From Escherichia coli (lineage in GTDB: Bacteria > Pseudomonadota > Gammaproteobacteria > Enterobacterales > Enterobacteriaceae), in NCBI RefSeq assembly GCF_013122565.1, contig NZ_CP053258.1: DNA of 64,000 bases. One strand, given 5' to 3'. Made by a program: the position numbers and the translations under genes. A model generated the notes under the pieces. It made no database searches. It was given only the letters and a program-made list of their open reading frames with translations, and was not told the DNA's origin. Positions 8,144 to 60,483 of the stretch are shown piece by piece. Each line of letters opens with the position of its first letter. Positions within the stretch are counted from its first letter, which is position 1.

Positions 8144-10754
8144 AAGCCAGTGCTTTGGTGATCTTCTCGTACAGATCGCCAGAGAGATTTTCCAGCCCTT
8201 TCAACTGTTCCAGCGCCGCGCGCATTTTCTCCTGACGTTTGGCATCATAACGTTTCAGGCGAATCAGCGGTTCAATCAGACGTGAAGCTACCTGCGGGTT
8301 ACGGCTGTTGAGGTCGGTAAGCATTTCCACCAGGAACTGGTAACCGCTGCCATCTTCGGCATGGAACGCTGCCGGGTTGCTGCCCGCAAACGCACCAATC
8401 AACGAACGAATACGGTTCGGGTTGCTCATGGTAAATGAGCGATGCTGCAACAGACCACGCACCGTCTCCAGCACATTCGCCGCCGGGCTGGTGGCTTGCA
8501 GGATAAACCATTTATCCATCACCAGACCATCCTGATGCCACTTGTCGTCGTACTCCTGCATCAGCGCGTCACGGCAAGGCAGCTGTGCAGCAACCGCCGC
8601 AGAAAGCGCTGCCAGCGCATCGGTCATATTGTTTGCTTCATGGTATTGCTTGCTCACCAGCACGTCAGCCAGATGCGTTTCACCAAAAGCAAGGAAGCGC
8701 AGGCAGGCATTACGCAGAGTGCGTTTTGCAATATCTTCATGCTCAACACGGTACTCGCTCTGGTAATTCGCGTTGTAAATAGCCAGGAGCTCATCCGCCA
8801 GTTCAGTCGCCAGAGTACGAGTGAGTGCTTCGCGTACTTCGGCAATAGCAATCGGGTCGATGATATCGAACAGTTCAGCCATTTCATTGACAGAAGGCAG
8901 CGTCAGGATTTCTGCCGCCAGCGCCGGATCAATCTTCTCATCGAGCAGCACCGCGCGGAAAGCGTCAGCCACATGTACCGGCAGAGACAGCGGCTGCCCT
9001 TGCTGATGACGGGCGACGTTCAGCTTGATGTAGGTTGCCAGCAAACTTTGCGCCGCATCCCAACGGGAGAAATCATTACGCGCATGACGCATCAGGAAGG
9101 TCAGTTGCTGATCGCTCCACTTATATTCCAGTTTCACTGGCGCAGAGAATTCGCACAGCAGCGCAGGCACCGGCTGGAAGTAGACATTATCAAAAACAAA
9201 GGTCTGTTCCGCCTGAGTGACGTTCAGCACGGAATTCACCGGATGACCGCCTTTCTGCAACGGGATCACTTTGCCTTCGTTATCATACAGTTCGATGGCA
9301 AACGGAATATGCAGCGGCTGTTTTTCTGCCTGATCCGGCGTGGCTGGCGTGCGCTGGCTGATGGTCAGGGTGTACTGCTCGGTTTCCGGATTGTAGTCGT
9401 CTTTGACGGTCACAACCGGCGTACCGGACTGGCTGTACCAACGGCGGAAATGGGAGAGATCGACATTCGACGCATCTTCCATCGCCTGCACAAAGTCGTC
9501 GCAGGTTGCCGCGCTACCATCATGGCGCTCGAAATAGAGTTGCATCCCTTTCTGGAAGTTTTCCTCGCCAAGCAGGGTGTGGATCATGCGAATCACTTCC
9601 GCGCCCTTCTCGTAAACGGTCAGGGTGTAGAAGTTGTTCATCTCAATGACCATATCCGGGCGGATTGGGTGCGCCATCGGGCTGGCGTCTTCCGCAAACT
9701 GCAATCCGCGCATGGTGCGCACATTATTGATGCGGTTAACTGCACGGGAACCAAGGTCAGAGCTGAATTCCTGATCGCGGAAGACGGTTAAACCTTCTTT
9801 CAGGCTGAGCTGGAACCAGTCGCGGCAGGTCACTCGGTTACCGGTCCAGTTATGGAAATATTCATGGCCGATAACGCGTTCAATATCGAGGTAATCTTTG
9901 TCGGTGGCAGTATCGGTGCGGGCCAGCACATATTTGGAGTTAAAGATATTCAGCCCCTTATTCTCCATTGCGCCCATATTGAAGAAATCCACCGCGACGA
10001 TCATATAGATGTCGAGGTCATACTCCAGGCCAAAGCGTTCTTCATCCCATTTCATGGAGTTTTTCAGCGAGGTCATCGCCCACGGCGCGCGATCAAGGTT
10101 GCCGCGATCGACGTACAGCTCCAGTGCTACTTCGCGACCAGAACGCGTGGTAAAGGTATCGCGCAGTACATCAAAGTCGCCTGCCACCAGCGCAAACAGG
10201 TAGCACGGTTTCGGGAACGGGTCCTGCCACTGTACCCAATGACGTCCGTTTTCCAGTTCGCCTTGTGCAACGCGGTTACCGTTGGAAAGCAGGAAGGGAT
10301 ATTTGGTTTTATCGGCAATAATTTTGGTGGTAAAACGAGCCAGTACGTCCGGGCGGTCGAGATAATACGTAATGTGGCGGAAACCTTCGGCTTCACACTG
10401 GGTGCAAAGCGCATCGCCTGACTGATAAAGCCCTTCCAGCGCCGTATTCGCCGCCGGGCTTATTTCATTAATGATCTTAAGCGTAAAACGCTCCGGCAAA
10501 TTACTGATGACCAGTGCGCCCTCTTCTTCTTTCCAGGCGGTCCACGGCTCATCATTAATATGAACAGAAACCAGTTTGAGGTCTTCGCCGTTGAGACGAA
10601 GCGGAGCATCTGATGCACCATGACGGACAGCCTGGCTGACCGCGGTAACGACCGTCTTTTGCGCGTCGAGGTCAAAGGTCAAGTCAATATCAGTAATCTG
10701 GTAATCCGGCGCACGATAATCGTGACGGTATTTGGCTTGTGGCTGTTGAGTCAT
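8142..10754 (-). CDS. pepN: Aminopeptidase N
   Basis: 870-aa ORF MTQQPQAKYRHDYRAPDYQITD…; M1 zinc motif HEYFHNW…E present. Confidence 0.97.
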   Translation of the reverse strand: MTQQPQAKYRHDYRAPDYQITDIDLTFDLDAQKTVVTAVSQAVRHGASDAPLRLNGEDLKLVSVHINDEPWTAWKEEEGALVISNLPERFTLKIINEISPAANTALEGLYQSGDALCTQCEAEGFRHITYYLDRPDVLARFTTKIIADKTKYPFLLSNGNRVAQGELENGRHWVQWQDPFPKPCYLFALVAGDFDVLRDTFTTRSGREVALELYVDRGNLDRAPWAMTSLKNSMKWDEERFGLEYDLDIYMIVAVDFFNMGAMENKGLNIFNSKYVLARTDTATDKDYLDIERVIGHEYFHNWTGNRVTCRDWFQLSLKEGLTVFRDQEFSSDLGSRAVNRINNVRTMRGLQFAEDASPMAHPIRPDMVIEMNNFYTLTVYEKGAEVIRMIHTLLGEENFQKGMQLYFERHDGSAATCDDFVQAMEDASNVDLSHFRRWYSQSGTPVVTVKDDYNPETEQYTLTISQRTPATPDQAEKQPLHIPFAIELYDNEGKVIPLQKGGHPVNSVLNVTQAEQTFVFDNVYFQPVPALLCEFSAPVKLEYKWSDQQLTFLMRHARNDFSRWDAAQSLLATYIKLNVARHQQGQPLSLPVHVADAFRAVLLDEKIDPALAAEILTLPSVNEMAELFDIIDPIAIAEVREALTRTLATELADELLAIYNANYQSEYRVEHEDIAKRTLRNACLRFLAFGETHLADVLVSKQYHEANNMTDALAALSAAVAAQLPCRDALMQEYDDKWHQDGLVMDKWFILQATSPAANVLETVRGLLQHRSFTMSNPNRIRSLIGAFAGSNPAAFHAEDGSGYQFLVEMLTDLNSRNPQVASRLIEPLIRLKRYDAKRQEKMRAALEQLKGLENLSGDLYEKITKALA

Positions 10755-31850: not shown

Positions 31851-32837
31851 CTAGTTGCCAGAAGCCAGCGAGGTTAGTTGCGTAAGCAGTTTCGCTGGTT
31901 CTTCACCTGAAAGCTGTGCGTCAACGGGCAAATACCACCAATTTTCTTCTGCAAAGGCCCGGCATTTCACCGCATCTTTTTCAGTCATTACCAGCGTTTG
32001 CCCGGTGCTTACCAACGCGCTGACATCCGCATGGTTCAAAGACTGATGATCGGCCAGCGGTACACATTTTTCCGGTTGTACGCCGCACATCTTCAGCGTG
32101 GCAAAAAAGCGCGGCGGATGCCCAATCCCCGCCATCGCCACTACATGTTCAAGCTGAGCAACGTCACAACGCGTACCGGTACGTAAATTCACCGCCTGAC
32201 CCGGCAGCAGATGCATGGGGATTTCACCGCTGCGGGGGACACCGCCGTTGACGATTACCGCATCAACCGACTTTAAGCGCCCCGCTCGCTCACGCATTGG
32301 CCCCGCCGGCAACCACCAGCCATTGCCAAAGCGACGCACACCATCAATAACGACAATTTCCACATCACGCGCCAGACGGTAATGCTGTAAACCGTCGTCG
32401 GTTACGATGATCTGCACATCAGGGTGTTGCGCCAGAATGGCTTTTACCGCATCAGAACGCACGGGAGAAACCGCAACGGGCGCGCCAGTGCGTTGATAAA
32501 TCAACACAGGTTCATCACCCGCCTGTGCTGTGGTGGTATCTGCCGACAATAACAGCGGATAAGATTCAGCCTTACCACCATATCCCCGCGATACGACCCC
32601 CACGCGAATACCGCGCTGTTGCAACTGTTCCACCAGCCAGACAACGACCGGGGTTTTTCCGTTGCCGCCTGCGGTGAGATTACCAACCACGACAACCGGT
32701 ACGGGGGCACGCCAGGCGCGCTTCAGTTTTAGTTTATAGCAAAGACGGATCGCGCCACTCACCAGGCCATACAAGCAGGAGAGTGGCAGCAATAGCCGCC
32801 ACAAAGGGGATTCACCAGACCAGATTTTTTCGATCAT
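31851..32837 (-). CDS. lpxK: Tetraacyldisaccharide 4'-kinase
   Basis: 328-aa ORF with P-loop [12 protein letters not shown]; 4-nt overlap with msbA stop. Confidence 0.95.
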
Positions 32838-34582
32838 TGGCCAAACTGCATTTTGTGAAGTTGCGCGTAAACGCCACGGTGCTCAAGCAAATCGTTATGC
32901 GTACCGCGTTCCACAATGACACCATCCTCGACGACCACGATTTCGTCTGCCTTTTCAATGGTAGACAAGCGGTGGGCAATCACCAGAGAGGTACGGTTTT
33001 TCTGCAACTCATCCAGTGCCGCCTGAATCGCACGTTCGGATTCGGTATCCAGAGCCGAGGTAGCTTCGTCCAGAATCAGAATCGGGCTATCACGCAGCAA
33101 GGCTCGAGCGATAGCAATACGCTGACGCTGACCGCCAGAGAGCAGCACGCCGTTTTCACCAATCACTGTATCGAGACCGTTATCCATCTTATTGATGAAG
33201 TCCATGGCGTAGGCCATACGCGCCGCTTCTTCAATTTGCTCACGGCTGTACTGTTCAGTCCGTGCGTAAGCAATGTTGTTAGCAACCGTATCGTTAAACA
33301 GATGGACATTCTGCGACACCAGAGCAACCTGGTTACGTAACGACGCCAGGGTATACTCGCGCAGATCGTGACCATCCATCAGGATTTCGCCTTCATCAAT
33401 ATCGTAAAAACGCGTGATCAGGCTGGCGATAGTTGATTTACCTGAACCAGAGCGTCCAACCAGAGCAACCGTCTTCCCTGCCGGAATTTTCAGGTTGATG
33501 TTACGCAATGCGGGTACGTCACGTCCCGGATAAGTAAAGGTGACATTGCGGAATTCCACGTCGCCAGTCGCACGCTCGATCACGCGCTTACCTTCGTCTT
33601 TCTCCTGCTCACTGTCCAGAATGGTAAACAGCGTCTGACAAGCCGCCATACCGCGCTGGAACTGGGCGTTAACGTTGGTCAGCGATTTCAGTGGACGCAT
33701 CAGTGCAATCATTGAAGAGAAAACAACGGTAATCGTACCGGCAGTCAGGCTATCCATGACACTTGGGAAGCTCGCCGCATACAGAACAAACGCCAGCGCC
33801 AAAGAGGCGATCAGCTGAATGATCGGATCAGAGATGGAAGAGGCTGAAACCATTTTCATCCCCTGAAGACGCATTCGGTTACTGACTTTATCGAAGCGTT
33901 TCGTTTCCACTTCCTGACCACCGAAAATCAATACTTCTTTGTGGCCCTTCAGCATTTGTTCTGCGCTGGTGGTCACCTGCCCCATTGTGTTCTGCATGTT
34001 TTTACTGATGTTACGAAAACGCTTCGATACAACGCGAATCGCAATCGAAACAATCGGTGCCAGCACAATCAAAATGATCGACAGTTGCCAGCTGTAATAG
34101 AACATCATGATGAACAGGCCGATGATCGACGCACCTTCACGCACAACAGTAATCAGTGCGCTGGAAGAAGAAGAAGCAACCTGTTCGGAATCGTAGGTGA
34201 TACGTGACAACAGCGTACCCGTTGACTGTTTGTCAAAAAATGAAACAGGCATTCCCATCATGTGACCAAACAGGCGGCGACGCATAGTCATTACCACCTT
34301 TCCTGATACCCAGGAGATACAGTAGCTGGAGACATAGCTGGTGATACCACGTAAAATCATCAGCCCGATCACCACCAGCGGCATCCACACCAGCACGGAG
34401 CGATCTGTTTTACCAAAGCCATCATCAAGAAGTGGCTTAAGGAGCGATAACATGAAGGTATCGCTGGCTGCGTTGAGGATTAACGCTACGCCCGCCACGA
34501 TCAGACCCGCTTTAAAAGGCGCAATGGTTGGCCACAGTCGGCGGAACGTCTGCCACGTAGAGAGATCTTTGTCGTTATGCAT
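32834..34582 (-). CDS. msbA: Lipid A / phospholipid ABC exporter MsbA
   Basis: 582-aa ORF; Walker [13 protein letters not shown] signature LSGGQRQR, six-TM N-terminal domain. Confidence 0.97.
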
Positions 34583-34618
34583 TCAAAAAACCAGCATTTG
34601 TTGAAATAGCCGCATATT

Positions 34619-36883
34619 CTACCCGTTATCCACTGGCACGCCAAACCACTGATGATACCAACGAGGTAAAATTTGCTCCCTGAGGCTGCTAATCCGCCAG
34701 CCTTGCGCTGAAAAATTGACCGCTATTTGCCCCTGATGAGGAGTATCAAGCCACGTATAACCCTGTTGTTGATAGCGATGTTTAACTTTGCTTGAGGGCA
34801 ATCGCCATGCGTTATAGCGCGATGCCGATGCGAGTGCCACTTTTCCATTCACCCGCTGAATTAATGGTAACGATGATGAGGTATTACTGCCATGGTGAGG
34901 TACCTGAAGCAATGTTGCCTGCACTTGCTGCCAGTAACGGCTTAGCATCTTTTGTTCAGCGGGGACTTCAATATCACCGGTTAGAAGAATGCTATTCGTC
35001 CCGTCATCAACCTTAACCACACAGGAATGGTTATTTCCTTTATCGTTGCTAGCTTGTAAAGGCCAGTGCACGCTGAAACGCAATCCTTGCCATTGCCACG
35101 CTTCGCCACGCACACAGGGCTGATGATGTTCCCAGTTTAACGGACTTCTGATCCATAACATCGGCCATGTGTGCAATATTGAGTCCAGCCCTCCCCGGTG
35201 ATCCAGATGTTCATGACTCAGAATAACGCCTTCCGGTTCAAGATTATGCCAGTGGAGCCAGGGGATAATCAGTTGTTGCCCACTATCCCCTTCAGGCCAG
35301 GCCAATCCCGTGTCATAGAGAATCGCTTTGCCGTTTCTGGCTATCACCATTGCCAGCCCTTGCCCGACATCAAGCATGTACACTTGCCACTCGTCAGGTC
35401 GAGGTTTTTGCCACAGCGGCCAGCACATCAGCAAGCCTACAGCCACACACATTGCTGGCAACGTTCGCCAGGCGTTTAATCGCCATACCACCAGTAAGAA
35501 CCATGGGGAAAATGATAGCCATTGCCAACGTTCAGCAATGTTGATCCACCCTTCTGGCAAACTCTTTAACCCCCAGAAAAGTAAAGCCAAAGACCGGTCG
35601 GCAAGAAACCATAACCCTTGCTCCAGGATTAACAGCCCGCTTAAATGCACAACCATCGCGGCGAGGATCAACGGAACCGTGATAAATGTCACCAAGGGAA
35701 TTGCTAATAGATTTGCAATAAACGAGGTCAGACTAATGCCATGAAATATGACGATTTGCACGGGCATAAGCAGAAGTGTGATTCCCAGTTGCAGATGGAT
35801 GAGGGAAACAACTGCACGCAATACCGGCGGCAGTTGCCACTCAGGACAGGGAAACCACTGATACCAAAATATCAATGCCGCGACCGCAGCGGCAGAGAGC
35901 CATAAACTTTGCGAGAGAATGGCAACAGGATCCATCAGCAAAATTGCCGCCAGACAACATATCCATACATCCCAGCCACTCCACTGTCGCCCACTTAACT
36001 TAAGCATTCCCCACGTAGCAAGCGCCACAACGGTACGCAATGCAGGAGGTTGCATTCCCGTCAGCCAGGCATAAAAAGCAGCACAGCAGATTCCGCCAAT
36101 TAATGGCATTTGCCAGTGGATCCAGCGCCCAGGCAGAAAAATTTGTCCACTGCGAATGAGTCCGGCAGCCAGCAACGCCGCAAAAGCGATGTGCAATCCC
36201 GATATCGCCATTAAATGCGCCGTTCCAGTATCACGCATGATATTTTTGATTTCTTTAGGGACGGATAACCGTTCCCCCATACCTAAACCAAGAATAACCG
36301 CATTCCACATATAGGGTTGCAGCGTTGTTTGTAGTGACGCCAGATACTGTGCCCGCAGGCTACAATTCGGTTCAATGACACTTGCCTGCAGAAAGCGGCC
36401 GGTGAGCGGCTGATGCTGGGCAATGGCATAACGCTGGCTATCAAAGCCGCCATCATTAAGTTGACCATGAACTGCACGAACTTTGAGTTTCATTGACCAC
36501 AGTTGTCCGGCACAAACCGCTTGCGGAAGATATTCGCCATACAGCACAAGGCCTGGCGCAGGGAATATACGTCGACCTTGTAGATAAGTAATTTGACCGT
36601 AATGAGTGGTCATGCCGTCAGTAGCAGTGATCTCAACAATTGCATCCTGCGTCGCGCCAGTTAAGGTTTCTCCTGCCCACAAAATTTGCTTTGCTGATAA
36701 TATGCCCCAAACGAAAAACAGCAACGTCAGCGCGATATAACGGACGGTTTTAACAGGGATAAATGCCAGTACGCAGGCGAAGAGAGTCAGAAACGCAAGG
36801 GTTAATGTCCCAGGCAATTGGGGCAAAATCAGCAACGGAAAAATTCCGCAAATTATGCATACGCCGACTGTCGTTATTTTCAT
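34619..36883 (-). CDS. ycaI: ComEC/Rec2-family DNA internalisation-related membrane protein YcaI
   Basis: ORF 34619..36961; start placed at MKITTVGVCIICGIFPLLILPQL (754 aa); polytopic membrane domain plus C-terminal metallo-beta-lactamase motif HEHLDHRGG. Confidence 0.88.
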   Translation of the reverse strand: MKITTVGVCIICGIFPLLILPQLPGTLTLAFLTLFACVLAFIPVKTVRYIALTLLFFVWGILSAKQILWAGETLTGATQDAIVEITATDGMTTHYGQITYLQGRRIFPAPGLVLYGEYLPQAVCAGQLWSMKLKVRAVHGQLNDGGFDSQRYAIAQHQPLTGRFLQASVIEPNCSLRAQYLASLQTTLQPYMWNAVILGLGMGERLSVPKEIKNIMRDTGTAHLMAISGLHIAFAALLAAGLIRSGQIFLPGRWIHWQMPLIGGICCAAFYAWLTGMQPPALRTVVALATWGMLKLSGRQWSGWDVWICCLAAILLMDPVAILSQSLWLSAAAVAALIFWYQWFPCPEWQLPPVLRAVVSLIHLQLGITLLLMPVQIVIFHGISLTSFIANLLAIPLVTFITVPLILAAMVVHLSGLLILEQGLWFLADRSLALLFWGLKSLPEGWINIAERWQWLSFSPWFLLVVWRLNAWRTLPAMCVAVGLLMCWPLWQKPRPDEWQVYMLDVGQGLAMVIARNGKAILYDTGLAWPEGDSGQQLIIPWLHWHNLEPEGVILSHEHLDHRGGLDSILHTWPMLWIRSPLNWEHHQPCVRGEAWQWQGLRFSVHWPLQASNDKGNNHSCVVKVDDGTNSILLTGDIEVPAEQKMLSRYWQQVQATLLQVPHHGSNTSSSLPLIQRVNGKVALASASRYNAWRLPSSKVKHRYQQQGYTWLDTPHQGQIAVNFSAQGWRISSLREQILPRWYHQWFGVPVDNG

Positions 36884-37029
36884 GCACCCCTCCCTGTTTA
36901 TGGAAAGTGTGCAACTTTGTTGAGCGGTTGTCTGGTGGGAATTTTGCGTTCCCCGAGGCACATTCAGAAGAATTTAACGAAAGGGTGAAAACTGCTCAAA
37001 ACTCTGCGAGGCAGCTTCCAGTTCCTGAT

Positions 37030-37064
37030 TAGAGAAATGAAAAAAGCACCCGACAGGTGCTTTT
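37030..37064 (-). terminator. Rho-independent terminator after ihfB
   Basis: AAAAGCACC-cgaca-GGTGCTTTT hairpin; U-rich tract follows on ihfB strand. Confidence 0.6.
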
Positions 37065-37089
37065 CTCGCGTTCAAGTTTGAGTAAAAAC

Positions 37090-37374
37090 TTAACCGTAAA
37101 TATTGGCGCGATCGCGCAGTTCTTTACCAGGTTTAAAGTGAGGAACGTATTTTCCTTCCAGTTCTACTTTATCGCCAGTCTTCGGATTACGTCCGGTACG
37201 TGGTGCGCGGTAGTGCAAAGAGAAACTGCCGAAACCGCGGATTTCAATACGCTCGCCCTGCGCAAGAGTCGAGGCCATATGCTCCAGCATCTCTTTTACT
37301 GCATCTTCAACCGTCTTGGCGGGAATGTGCGATTGCTGGGTGGCAAGTCTTTCTATCAATTCTGACTTGGTCAT
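37090..37374 (-). CDS. ihfB: Integration host factor beta subunit
   Basis: 94-aa [37 protein letters not shown]…. Confidence 0.98.
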
Positions 37375-37428
37375 GATTCCTCCGGTTCCTTAAAGGCAAA
37401 TTAAGCGGCTGCTGTTGCTGCATTGATT

Positions 37429-37450
37429 AAGGGCGGCCGTAGCCGCCCTT
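37429..37450 (-). terminator. GC-rich hairpin between rpsA and ihfB (possible partial terminator/attenuator)
   Basis: AAGGGCGGC-cgta-GCCGCCCTT perfect 9-bp stem, 80 nt downstream of rpsA stop; no strong U tract. Confidence 0.4.
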
Positions 37451-37533
37451 AGTGCTTGATTACAGGACGAAACCTGCAATCTGTCAAGTAAACTCAACAA
37501 ACTTCGGAATAAAAATCCCGAAGAGTCAGAGAA

Positions 37534-39207
37534 TTACTCGCCTTTAGCTGCTTTGAAAGCTTCAGCCATTGCGTTGTTGGAGAAGTTTGCATCTTCCTGT
37601 TTGTTAACAGTTGCGATTGCATCTTTCTCGTCAGCTTCGTCTTTCGCACGAACAGACAGGCTGATTGCGCGGTTTTTACGATCAACGCCGGTGAATTTAG
37701 CTTCAACTTCGTCGCCAACGCTCAGAACCAGGGTAGCGTCTTCAACGCGGTCACGGGATGCTTCAGAAGCACGCAGGTAACCTTCAACGCCGTCAGCCAG
37801 TTCTACGGTTGCGCCTTTAGCGTCAACTGCAGTTACTTTACCGGTTACGATAGCGCCTTTCTTGTTCAGAGCAACCCAGTTGTTGAACGGATCTTCTGCG
37901 AGCTGTTTAACGCCCAGGGAGATACGTTCACGTTCTGCGTCGACCTGCAGAACAACTGCAGCGATTTCGTCGCCTTTTTTGTATTCACGAACTGCTTCTT
38001 CGCCTGCAACGTTCCAGGAGATGTCAGACAGGTGAACCAGGCCGTCGATGCCGCCGTCCAGGCCGATGAAGATACCGAAGTCAGTGATAGACTTGATTTT
38101 ACCTTCAACACGGTCGCCCTTGTTGTGGGTTTCCGCGAACTGCTGCCACGGGTTAGCTTTGCACTGTTTCAGACCCAGGGAGATACGACGACGTTCTTCG
38201 TCGATATCCAGAACCATAACTTCCACTACATCGCCAACGTTAACAACTTTGGACGGGTGGATGTTTTTGTTGGTCCAATCCATTTCGGAAACGTGTACCA
38301 GGCCTTCAACGCCTTCTTCGATTTCAACGAAGCAGCCGTAGTCGGTCAGGTTGGTCACGCGACCAGTCAGTTTGGTACCTTCCGGATAACGTTTAGCGAT
38401 AGCTACCCACGGATCTTCGCCCAGCTGTTTCAGGCCCAGGGATACACGGGTACGTTCGCGGTCGAACTTCAGCACTTTAACAGTGATTTCGTCGCCCACG
38501 TTGACGATTTCGCTCGGATGCTTAACGCGTTTCCAGGCCATGTCAGTGATGTGCAGCAGGCCGTCAACGCCGCCCAGATCAACGAATGCACCGTAGTCAG
38601 TGAGGTTCTTAACGATACCTTTAACTTCCATGCCTTCCTGCAGGTTTTCCAGCAGCTGATCGCGCTCTGCGCTGTTTTCGGATTCGATAACGGCACGACG
38701 AGAAACAACAACGTTGTTGCGCTTCTGATCCAGCTTGATTACTTTGAATTCAAGCTCTTTGCCTTCCAGGTGCAGAGTGTCACGCACCGGACGAACGTCT
38801 ACCAGAGAACCTGGCAGGAACGCACGAATACCGTTCAGCTCAACAGTGAAGCCGCCCTTAACTTTGCCGTTGATAACACCGGTAACAGTTTCAGCATCTT
38901 CGTAAGCTTTTTCCAGCGTGATCCAGGCTTCGTGACGTTTAGCTTTCTCACGGGACAGCAGAGTTTCACCGAAGCCGTCTTCTACTGCGTCCAGAGCAAC
39001 GTCAACTTCGTCACCTACCTGGATTTCCAGCTCGCCCTGGGCGTTTTTGAACTGCTCAGCCGGGATGGCGGACTCAGATTTCAGACCAGCGTCAACCAGT
39101 ACTACGTCTTTGTCGATAGCAACAACAACGCCACGAACGATAGAACCCGGGCGGGTTTCGATTTCTTTTAAGGACTCTTCAAAGAGTTGAGCAAAAGATT
39201 CAGTCAT
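37534..39207 (-). CDS. rpsA: 30S ribosomal protein S1
   Basis: 557-aa [35 protein letters not shown]…; six S1 repeats. Confidence 0.98.
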
Positions 39208-47647: not shown

Positions 47648-49930
47648 ATGTCCGAGCTTAATGAAAAGTTAGCCACAGCCTGGGAAGGTTTTACCAAAGG
47701 TGACTGGCAGAATGAAGTAAACGTCCGTGACTTCATTCAGAAAAACTACACTCCGTACGAGGGTGACGAGTCCTTCCTGGCTGGCGCTACTGAAGCGACC
47801 ACCACCCTGTGGGACAAAGTAATGGAAGGCGTTAAACTGGAAAACCGCACTCACGCGCCAGTTGACTTTGACACCGCTGTTGCTTCCACCATCACCTCTC
47901 ACGACGCTGGCTACATCAACAAAGCGTTGGAAAAAGTTGTTGGTCTGCAGACTGAAGCTCCGCTGAAACGTGCTCTTATCCCGTTCGGTGGTATCAAAAT
48001 GATCGAAGGTTCCTGCAAAGCGTACAACCGCGAACTGGACCCGATGATCAAAAAAATCTTCACTGAATACCGTAAAACTCACAACCAGGGCGTGTTCGAC
48101 GTTTACACTCCGGACATCCTGCGTTGCCGTAAATCCGGTGTTCTGACCGGTCTGCCAGATGCTTATGGCCGTGGTCGTATCATCGGTGACTACCGTCGCG
48201 TTGCACTGTACGGTATCGACTACCTGATGAAAGACAAATACGCTCAGTTCACCTCTCTGCAGGCTGATCTGGAAAACGGCGTAAACCTGGAACAGACTAT
48301 CCGTCTGCGCGAAGAAATCGCTGAACAGCACCGCGCTCTGGGTCAGATGAAAGAAATGGCTGCGAAATACGGCTACGACATCTCTGGTCCGGCTACCAAC
48401 GCTCAGGAAGCTATCCAGTGGACTTACTTCGGCTACCTGGCTGCTGTTAAGTCTCAGAACGGTGCTGCAATGTCCTTCGGTCGTACCTCCACCTTCCTGG
48501 ATGTGTACATCGAACGTGACCTGAAAGCTGGTAAGATCACCGAACAAGAAGCGCAGGAAATGGTTGACCACCTGGTCATGAAACTGCGTATGGTTCGCTT
48601 CCTGCGTACTCCGGAATACGATGAACTGTTCTCTGGCGACCCGATCTGGGCAACCGAATCTATCGGTGGTATGGGCCTTGACGGTCGTACCCTGGTTACC
48701 AAAAACAGCTTCCGTTTCCTGAACACCCTGTACACCATGGGTCCGTCTCCGGAACCGAACATGACCATTCTGTGGTCTGAAAAACTGCCGCTGAACTTCA
48801 AGAAATTCGCCGCTAAAGTGTCCATCGACACCTCTTCTCTGCAGTATGAGAACGATGACCTGATGCGTCCGGACTTCAACAACGATGACTACGCTATCGC
48901 TTGCTGCGTAAGCCCGATGATCGTTGGTAAACAAATGCAGTTCTTCGGTGCGCGTGCAAACCTGGCGAAAACCATGCTGTACGCAATCAACGGCGGCGTT
49001 GACGAAAAACTGAAAATGCAGGTTGGTCCGAAGTCTGAGCCGATCAAAGGCGATCTCCTGAACTACGATGAAGTGATGGAGCGCATGGATCACTTCATGG
49101 ACTGGCTGGCTAAACAGTACATCACTGCACTGAACATCATCCACTACATGCACGACAAGTACAGCTACGAAGCCTCTCTGATGGCGCTGCACGACCGTGA
49201 CGTTATCCGTACCATGGCGTGTGGTATCGCTGGTCTGTCCGTTGCTGCTGACTCCCTGTCTGCAATCAAATATGCGAAAGTTAAACCGATTCGTGACGAA
49301 GACGGTCTGGCTATCGACTTCGAAATCGAAGGCGAATACCCGCAGTTTGGTAACAACGATCCGCGTGTAGATGACCTGGCTGTTGACCTGGTAGAACGTT
49401 TCATGAAGAAAATTCAGAAACTGCACACCTACCGTGACGCTATCCCGACTCAGTCTGTTCTGACCATCACGTCTAACGTTGTGTATGGTAAGAAAACTGG
49501 TAACACCCCAGACGGTCGTCGTGCTGGCGCGCCGTTCGGACCGGGTGCTAACCCGATGCACGGTCGTGACCAGAAAGGTGCTGTAGCGTCTCTGACTTCC
49601 GTTGCTAAACTGCCGTTTGCTTACGCTAAAGATGGTATCTCCTACACCTTCTCTATCGTTCCGAACGCACTGGGTAAAGACGACGAAGTTCGTAAGACCA
49701 ACCTGGCTGGTCTGATGGATGGTTACTTCCACCACGAAGCGTCCATCGAAGGTGGTCAGCACCTGAACGTTAACGTGATGAACCGTGAAATGCTGCTCGA
49801 CGCGATGGAAAACCCGGAAAAATATCCGCAGCTGACCATCCGTGTATCTGGCTACGCAGTACGTTTCAACTCGCTGACTAAAGAACAGCAGCAGGACGTT
49901 ATTACTCGTACCTTCACTCAATCTATGTAA
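47648..49930 (+). CDS. pflB: Pyruvate formate-lyase (formate C-acetyltransferase 1)
   Basis: 760-aa [27 protein letters not shown]…; C-terminal glycyl-radical motif RVSGYAV. Confidence 0.98.
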
Positions 49931-60245: not shown

Positions 60246-60415
60246 AATGGCTCACTCAAGCTTGCTCACGATTGATTCCAGTAACAAACCGTATTGTGTA
60301 ATTATTTCTATAGCAGTTCGCTATATAGGCTTGTATACATCGAATGATTTGAAAATCAAAGAGATAGGTAGATTTTCACTCGAAAGTAGTATTACGTGTA
60401 AGTGAGGAGTAATTA

Positions 60416-60429
60416 TTGTTCGGTATCAA
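60416..60429 (-). promoter_or_regulatory. FNR box of the dmsABC promoter
   Basis: On dmsA strand reads TTGAT-accg-AACAA (TTGAT-N4-ATCAA family), about 175 nt upstream of dmsA ATG. Confidence 0.5.
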
Positions 60430-60430
60430 A

Positions 60431-60462
60431 GGGAGACAAAAAAAGCGCCCGCAGGCGCTTTT
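60431..60462 (-). terminator. Rho-independent terminator after serS
   Basis: AAAGCGCC-cgca-GGCGCTTT hairpin; on serS strand followed by UUUUUUGUCUCC. Confidence 0.65.
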
Positions 60463-60483
60463 TAGATTCAGAAAAATTGGGTA

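Follow-up and report, generated by a model that had tools for sequence, protein, structure and literature searches.

Positions 34619..36883 of the analyzed window, a 64,000-nucleotide stretch of Escherichia coli DNA, hold an intact E. coli-type ycaI gene on the minus strand. The gene is a ComEC/Rec2 orthologue flanked, as usual, by ihfB and msbA, and it is ordinary and already annotated. Its frame translates without interruption through 754 codons, as the preliminary description had stated without naming the strand, and the product begins MKITTVGVCII. An open frame of this length is far beyond chance, given that the probability of 754 consecutive sense codons in DNA of approximately 50% GC is (61/64)^754, or about 2e-16. 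The features of the locus are:

34619..36883, minus strand: ycaI coding sequence, comprising 754 sense codons and a TAG stop at 34619..34621 (open reading frame list and translation)
36881..36883, minus strand: preferred ycaI start, ATG (MKITT...), chosen on the strong Shine-Dalgarno sequence ahead of it, the NF008580 alignment, the starts of orthologues and the position of the first transmembrane helix
36887..36894, minus strand: Shine-Dalgarno sequence GGGAGGGG, ending 3 nt before the ATG, with its GGAGG core 5 nt before it (direct reading)
36884..36961, minus strand: upstream extension of 26 in-frame codons, the first of them GTG (36959..36961), judged to be a non-coding 5′ leader
36662..36883, minus strand: three predicted N-terminal transmembrane helices (aa 3-18, 26-40 and 45-74; AlphaFold2 model)
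36371..36652, minus strand: OB-fold-like beta domain (aa 78-171; DUF4131 region), modeled as five strands and one helix
35483..36283, minus strand: Competence channel transmembrane domain, PF03772 (aa 201-467; Pfam, 180.2 bits against a cut-off of 23)
34826..35371, minus strand: C-terminal metallo-beta-lactamase (MBL)-like nuclease domain, PF00753 (aa 505-686; Pfam Lactamase_B, 83.4 bits against 22.7)
35189..35215, minus strand: MBL motif II, HEHLDHRGG (H557-E-H559-L-D561-H562; translation and alignment)
37039..37067, minus strand: intrinsic terminator of ihfB (13-bp stem and T-run), which bounds the regulatory region of ycaI on its upstream side
37005..37020, no strand assigned: candidate CRP-S-like site TGGAAgctgccTCGCA, a weak 8/10 match to TGCGA-N6-TCGCA that begins 137 nt before the ATG
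34616..34644, minus strand: sigma-70-like element TTGGCG-17-TAGAAT, a candidate msbA promoter that overlaps the ycaI stop codon

Upstream of ycaI lie ihfB (37090..37374, minus strand), rpsA and cmk, and downstream lie msbA (32834..34582, minus strand), lpxK and ycaQ, which reproduces the K-12 gene order cmk-rpsA-ihfB-ycaI-msbA-lpxK-ycaQ. The limits of the gene are the same as those of K-12 b0913, and are identical to those assigned by PGAP to the 2265-nt ycaI ('ComEC family protein') of E. coli A30, the nearest E. coli genome identified for this locus. K-12 YcaI (b0913, NP_415433.4) is likewise 754 aa long, shares the Shine-Dalgarno sequence, start and HEHLDHRGG motif of the window protein, and is encoded between an upstream ihfB and an msbA gene located 36 nt downstream. 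The two proteins are identical at 732 of 754 residues, and all 22 substitutions fall outside the catalytic positions. Rfam and tRNA scans returned no match within or beside the locus. Terminator-like hairpins inside the coding sequence (for example at 36849..36835) were considered as well, and were taken as chance occurrences on a count of 7 against 3.9±2.1 in shuffled sequences.

The earlier assignment of the gene to ycaI and to the ComEC family is borne out by five family models. Specifically, the protein scores 1313.8 bits with the NCBIfam enterobacterial equivalog NF008580 (PRK11539), for which the cut-off is 969, and aligns to positions 3-758 of the 758 positions of this model. It also scores above the curated cut-offs of TIGR00361 (ComEC_Rec2; 1101.3 bits against 190), TIGR00360 (209.1 bits against 36.5), Pfam Competence and Pfam Lactamase_B. 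That the gene is intact likewise holds, in that the frame is open and all MBL metal-ligand positions are occupied.

The AlphaFold2 model of YcaI, built with 70 homologues, has a pLDDT of 94.4 and a pTM of 0.92. Hydropathy peaks at aa 3-21, 26-44 and 47-65 accompany the three modeled N-terminal helices. The OB-fold-like region gives a DUF4131 (PF13567) score of 20.7 bits, below the gathering score of 31.6, and the DUF4131 match is clear in four orthologues. In the model, a helical bundle occupies aa 176-491 and an MBL alpha-beta/beta-alpha fold spans approximately aa 499-733. This last domain superposes in Foldseek on the ComEC structure 9ic4 with a TM score of 0.81. Foldseek also matches the domain to Pce/CbpE, RNase J, CPSF73 and glyoxalase II with a probability of 1.00 each, and Pce/CbpE and RNase J are neighbors reported for the fold of ComEC itself (PMC12455585).

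With its OB-fold-like domain, competence channel and MBL-like domain, YcaI has the architecture of the characterized ComEC proteins from Moorella glycerini, Neomoorella carbonis, M. thermoacetica and Bacillus subtilis (PDB 9ic4, 30bt), to which identity in the MBL domain is only about 26%. YcaI keeps the equivalents of all six Moorella-type residues compared (H598, D602, H603, D700, H725 and S728). Solved Rec2/ComEC chains align by sequence search with YcaI aa 110-747 (E 1.8e-78), such that the likeness of the full-length protein to solved ComEC is sequence-based whereas the fold match covers the MBL domain only. Over this same stretch, the gammaproteobacterial Rec2/ComEC chains (PDB 9vc9, 9vcb and 9vcf) can be aligned at E values of 2e-78 to 4e-76. 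These chains share with YcaI the motifs DVGQGLA, GNNxSCV, LLTGDIE, PHHGS and a C-terminal WY motif, and exceed it in length by 45-80 residues, having extra residues at the N-terminus. Unlike the HEHLDHRGG of YcaI, their deposited motif II reads SH(G/S)ANAHAGG, which we infer to be an engineered, inactive Asp-to-Ala variant of HxDxDH. A literature search for a paper describing 9vc9, 9vcb, 9vc6 or 9vcf returned false matches only.

Comparative evidence places the translation start of ycaI at the MKITT ATG, as annotated, and makes it very unlikely that the 26-codon extension is translated. The preliminary description had considered the start ambiguous, noting that 26 further in-frame codons lead back to an upstream ATG. 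The open extension is indeed a fact of the sequence, but its first codon in the window is GTG. The ATG found at 36961..36963 (minus strand) is out of frame with ycaI and reaches a TAA after 21 codons. K-12 MG1655 carries ATG where the window has the upstream in-frame GTG, so that the 'upstream ATG' of the preliminary description matches K-12 and not the window. As for the ambiguity itself, comparison settles it in favor of the MKITT ATG. The NF008580 alignment begins at MKITT, with residue 27 of the 780-aa frame falling on model position 3, and PGAP begins there as well. Orthologues of 40-51% identity have N-termini within a few residues of MKITT, the first predicted transmembrane helix begins at YcaI residue 3, and AAGGAGG or GGGAGG also stands ahead of the start in two orthologous loci.

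The competing proposal, in which translation from the GTG at 36961 yields a 780-aa product and MKITT supplies an internal methionine, is one that we find scarcely credible. The frame is open through these codons, GTG is a permitted start, and K-12 offers ATG at the same place. However, the upstream sequence that was inspected contains no purine-rich Shine-Dalgarno sequence ahead of the GTG, whereas GGGAGGGG precedes the MKITT ATG. Moreover, the upstream codon is unstable between strains (GTG or ATG), the extension is hydrophilic in character, and no equivalent start occurs in the upstream regions of orthologues. In strain IMT5155, the G-run of the Shine-Dalgarno sequence is 1 nt shorter, which puts the extension out of frame. 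Exact-word searches across 5426 E. coli genomes give this shorter allele in 1181 of them and the allele of the window in 3810, the out-of-frame effect having been examined in the one strain, IMT5155. A frameshift this common would not persist in an extension that was translated, and we therefore judge the extension to be non-coding.

A further reading to be weighed is that ycaI, although intact with an MKITT start, survives as a relic without function in a species that does not transform, left open by a chance of recent history and no longer under selection. Natural transformation of E. coli is known only with artificial expression of sxy together with lambda Red for recombination (PMC3330819). 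In addition, ycaI mutants are viable (PMC8151780), plasmid transformation on plates, which is an unrelated process, is unaffected by a ycaI knock-out (PMC6135910), and the gene contains many rare codons (23 TTA and 6 CTA). Set against these points is the pattern of conservation, which renders a relic very improbable. At least 80% of the 2.6-kb ycaI locus is present in 5424 of the 5426 complete RefSeq E. coli genomes, and one less-covered copy that was inspected is split by a Mu-like prophage. In comparisons with five diverse E. coli strains, from which the window protein differs at 6-23 amino acids, the dN/dS of ycaI is 0.12-0.30 and is similar across the N-terminal/OB, channel and MBL parts. 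The value for msbA is about 0.02, and thus the constraint on ycaI is weaker, yet clearly purifying. Nine of nine catalytic or metal-ligand positions are intact, and the order ihfB-comEC-msbA is held in orthologues of 42-51% identity, such that same-synteny orthologues persist down to about 42%. L417 and A721 differ from all five strains, and W69 and M192 from some of them. These residues were considered as meaningful window-specific changes and rejected, as all four lie in non-conserved alignment columns.

The nine positions are D505, H557, D561, H562, N617, D637, H663, H664 and S666, which are invariant across 70 homologues of 26-51% identity and are all present in YcaI. When the equivalents H598, D602, H603, D700 and H725 (M. 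glycerini numbering) are substituted, nuclease activity is lost in vitro, as is transformation in Legionella or Bacillus (PMC12455585; PMC8579336). Position 559 behaves differently in the same alignment, carrying D in 54 homologues, H in 16 and nothing else. Because only D or H occurs there, the alignment indicates that position 559 remains a ligand position. The HEHLDHRGG motif reported earlier does occur, once, at aa 557-565. Describing it as preserved is accurate with respect to the MBL superfamily, in which HxHxDH is the classical form, but not with respect to the ComEC proteins that have been studied, from which it differs at one ligand. In biochemically characterized ComEC nucleases, including those of Moorella and Bacillus, motif II is HxDxDH, and the nuclease domains of this form that were tested depend on Mn (PMC12455585; PMC8579336). 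Among 139 full-length relatives taken from the nearest 150 clusters, HxDxDH occurs in 114 and HxHxDH in 23, including YcaI. YcaI of E. coli has the His form, as do its closest enterobacterial relatives and nearly all relatives with more than about 40% identity, and the two forms are interleaved among relatives at 33-40% identity. HxHxDH in YcaI is a lineage-associated variant and not a defect.

With His in place of Asp, the metal preference and activity of YcaI could differ from those of the characterized ComEC proteins. Classical HxHxDH sites of MBL enzymes typically bind Zn, as opposed to the Mn-dependent HxDxDH domains of ComEC. This difference opens the way to an alternative that accepts the ComEC fold but holds that the activity has shifted, with the Asp-to-His change altering metal use or substrate handling. 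Examples would be a Zn- or Fe-dependent hydrolysis suited to the use of DNA as a nutrient, or a role in the envelope linked to msbA-lpxK. The concentration of HxHxDH in YcaI and its closest relatives speaks for such a shift, as does the conserved adjacency to msbA-lpxK. Nevertheless, His and Asp are both competent metal ligands, the interleaving of the two forms suggests that they are interchangeable, and the Moorella D600A substitution slowed the rate only about 5-fold (PMC12455585). The argument from adjacency is weakened by H. influenzae, where rec-2 adjoins an msbA homologue according to the title of Clifton et al. 1994, as it stands in PMC5031224, and Rec2 is a bona fide competence protein. 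The location of rec-2 in that species means that proximity to msbA says little on function. On balance, we regard a shifted activity as unlikely.

Expression of ycaI would be governed from the roughly 155 nt that follow the ihfB terminator, a hairpin and T-run whose equivalent is present in orthologous loci. This region contains no strong sigma-70 match. The right half of the candidate site TGGAAgctgccTCGCA is of the CRP-S type (TGCGA-N6-TCGCA, with C6 and G17), and a CRP-S scan of the whole window gave 39 matches against 43 expected, which puts this site alone at chance level. However, comparable CRP-S-like sites lie at -122 to -148 in six of seven orthologous upstream regions, just past the ihfB terminator in each, and this positional recurrence has a combined p of about 3e-5 with a positional window chosen post hoc. 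The supplement of Cameron & Redfield 2006 is said to contain a list of CRP-S sites, and Sinha et al. 2009 is reportedly a Sxy microarray/induction study; ycaI is reportedly listed among the Sxy-induced genes in a published paper or supplement. In a search for direct evidence of Sxy induction or DNA catabolism, ycaI was found unnamed in Sinha & Redfield 2012 and in Søndberg-type CRP/Sxy papers. Published phylogenetic footprinting (PMC1635313) found CRP-S-type sites at genes of Enterobacteriaceae that are orthologous to the competence genes of H. influenzae, and the putative ycaI site agrees with this qualitatively.

At the other end of the gene, TTGGCG-17-TAGAAT is the sole 9/12 promoter-like match in 34400..37500, compared with a mean of 2.9 in shuffled sequences. 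This element may drive msbA independently of ycaI. A Kan cassette inside ycaI is tolerated even though msbA is essential (PMC8151780), which is consistent with an independent msbA promoter.

Taken together, the locus is very probably an intact chromosomal ycaI that encodes a ComEC/Rec2 orthologue with a DNA-import role assigned by homology, and is translated from MKITT; its expression is probably low and probably under the influence of Sxy and CRP. Integrity, family, catalytic ligands, purifying selection, synteny and the argument for the start were computed directly. For topology, nuclease and channel activity, and regulation, we infer the following picture, the mechanism of which is drawn by homology from ComEC of Bacillus, Moorella/Neomoorella and Legionella. 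In outline (PMC12455585; bioRxiv 10.64898/2026.04.23.720307), DNA is captured by the OB fold and loses one strand to the MBL domain, and the remaining strand goes through the channel. The 754-aa YcaI would be an inner-membrane protein that binds double-stranded DNA, as it arrives, with an OB fold in the periplasm. Its MBL-like domain, also periplasmic, would degrade the non-transported strand by two-metal-ion hydrolysis, and the other strand would pass into the cytoplasm by a channel that the helical 'competence' domain forms. Translation would begin at the ATG at 36883, leaving the 26 upstream in-frame codons as an untranslated leader. Expression is probably low, which the rare codons fit, and probably needs Sxy and CRP-cAMP acting at the weak CRP-S-type site just past the ihfB terminator. 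By homology, YcaI would thus carry out the step at the inner membrane in the DNA-uptake pathway that Sxy controls. The DNA-uptake machinery of E. coli is functional but weak.

The family, architecture and likely mechanism of this annotated and near-universal E. coli gene are already established, and past annotation hygiene the locus has little importance. It is useful as a comparative case for the annotated MKITT start, in which an open 26-codon extension is a leader, and as an instance of purifying selection on ycaI in a species for which natural transformation is not known. Such selection fits a DNA-uptake function that is retained and rarely induced. The locus also draws attention to YcaI-type proteins as HxHxDH counterparts of the HxDxDH ComEC nucleases studied so far. 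It is conceivable, albeit doubtful, that replacement of the second motif II ligand in the enterobacterial YcaI lineage, from Asp to His, recreated a Zn-type HxHxDH site, and that herein lies a reason for low DNA uptake or nutrient use. If His559 does alter metal specificity or nuclease processivity, then it could partly explain how little transforming DNA E. coli and its relatives take up or, alternatively, why DNA seems to serve these bacteria chiefly as a nutrient.

The 24 kb of the window from 20000 to 44000, which includes ycaI, retains the K-12 gene order, and no IS elements were seen in it. Among 5426 complete RefSeq E. coli genomes, a collection that leaves out Shigella, the best identity for this segment is 98.7%, and every one of the 5426 falls in the 95-99% identity band. 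At the ycaI locus, the top identity in the same collection is 99.2%. The collection lacks a representative of the window's lineage, which could belong to Shigella or to a less common branch of Escherichia.

Natural loss of intact ycaI is rare, and one instance occurs in E. coli 90-3040.

NZ_CP027459.1, 5962..7185, disrupted ycaI (locus L005), annotated as a pseudogene

Here, insertion of a Mu-like prophage cuts the gene after ~408 codons, and prophage genes for Com, a DNA methyltransferase and a tail-fibre protein lie beside the truncated frame.

Alignment of YcaI residues 555-566 with the solved gammaproteobacterial Rec2/ComEC chains 9vc9_A, 9vcb_A and 9vcf_A reveals that motif II in these chains reads SH(G/S)ANAHAGG; homologues carry SHxDxDHxGG at this position. 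The three chains are probably Asp-to-Ala, catalytically dead constructs. A literature search for papers on the 9vc9, 9vcb and 9vcf structures found none.

Elsewhere in the window, long open frames lie opposite several genes, and one small RNA was recognized.

47648..49930, + strand, pflB
47669..49921, - strand, open frame of 750 codons, antisense to pflB and codon-aligned with it
38032..39171, + strand, long opposite-strand ORF inside rpsA
8442..9791, + strand, long opposite-strand ORF inside pepN
60336..60470, + strand, Rfam match to the enterobacterial sRNA STnc130, between dmsA and serS

The antisense frame of pflB is free of stops because pflB contains a single TTA codon and neither CTA nor TCA. 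A second gene antisense to pflB was therefore rejected, and the open frame is an artefact of codon bias in a highly expressed gene. The ORFs inside rpsA and pepN are similar in being long and on the opposite strand. STnc130 matches its Rfam model at full length and gathering level (138.8 bits), and the Rfam scan of the window returned no other match.

The order rpsA-ihfB-comEC-msbA is conserved at three orthologous loci (L007, L011 and L013) whose ComEC proteins share only 42-51% identity with YcaI, and at L007 it extends to cmk upstream and lpxK downstream. Across all three, a spacer of ~35-38 nt separates comEC from msbA. The end of ycaI in the window carries a promoter-like sequence match.

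34616..34644, - strand, sigma-70-like element TTGGCG-17-TAGAAT

The TAG stop codon of ycaI forms part of the -10 hexamer, and the msbA ATG lies 33 nt downstream of the end of this hexamer. As a candidate internal promoter, the element may drive transcription of msbA and lpxK, which are essential.
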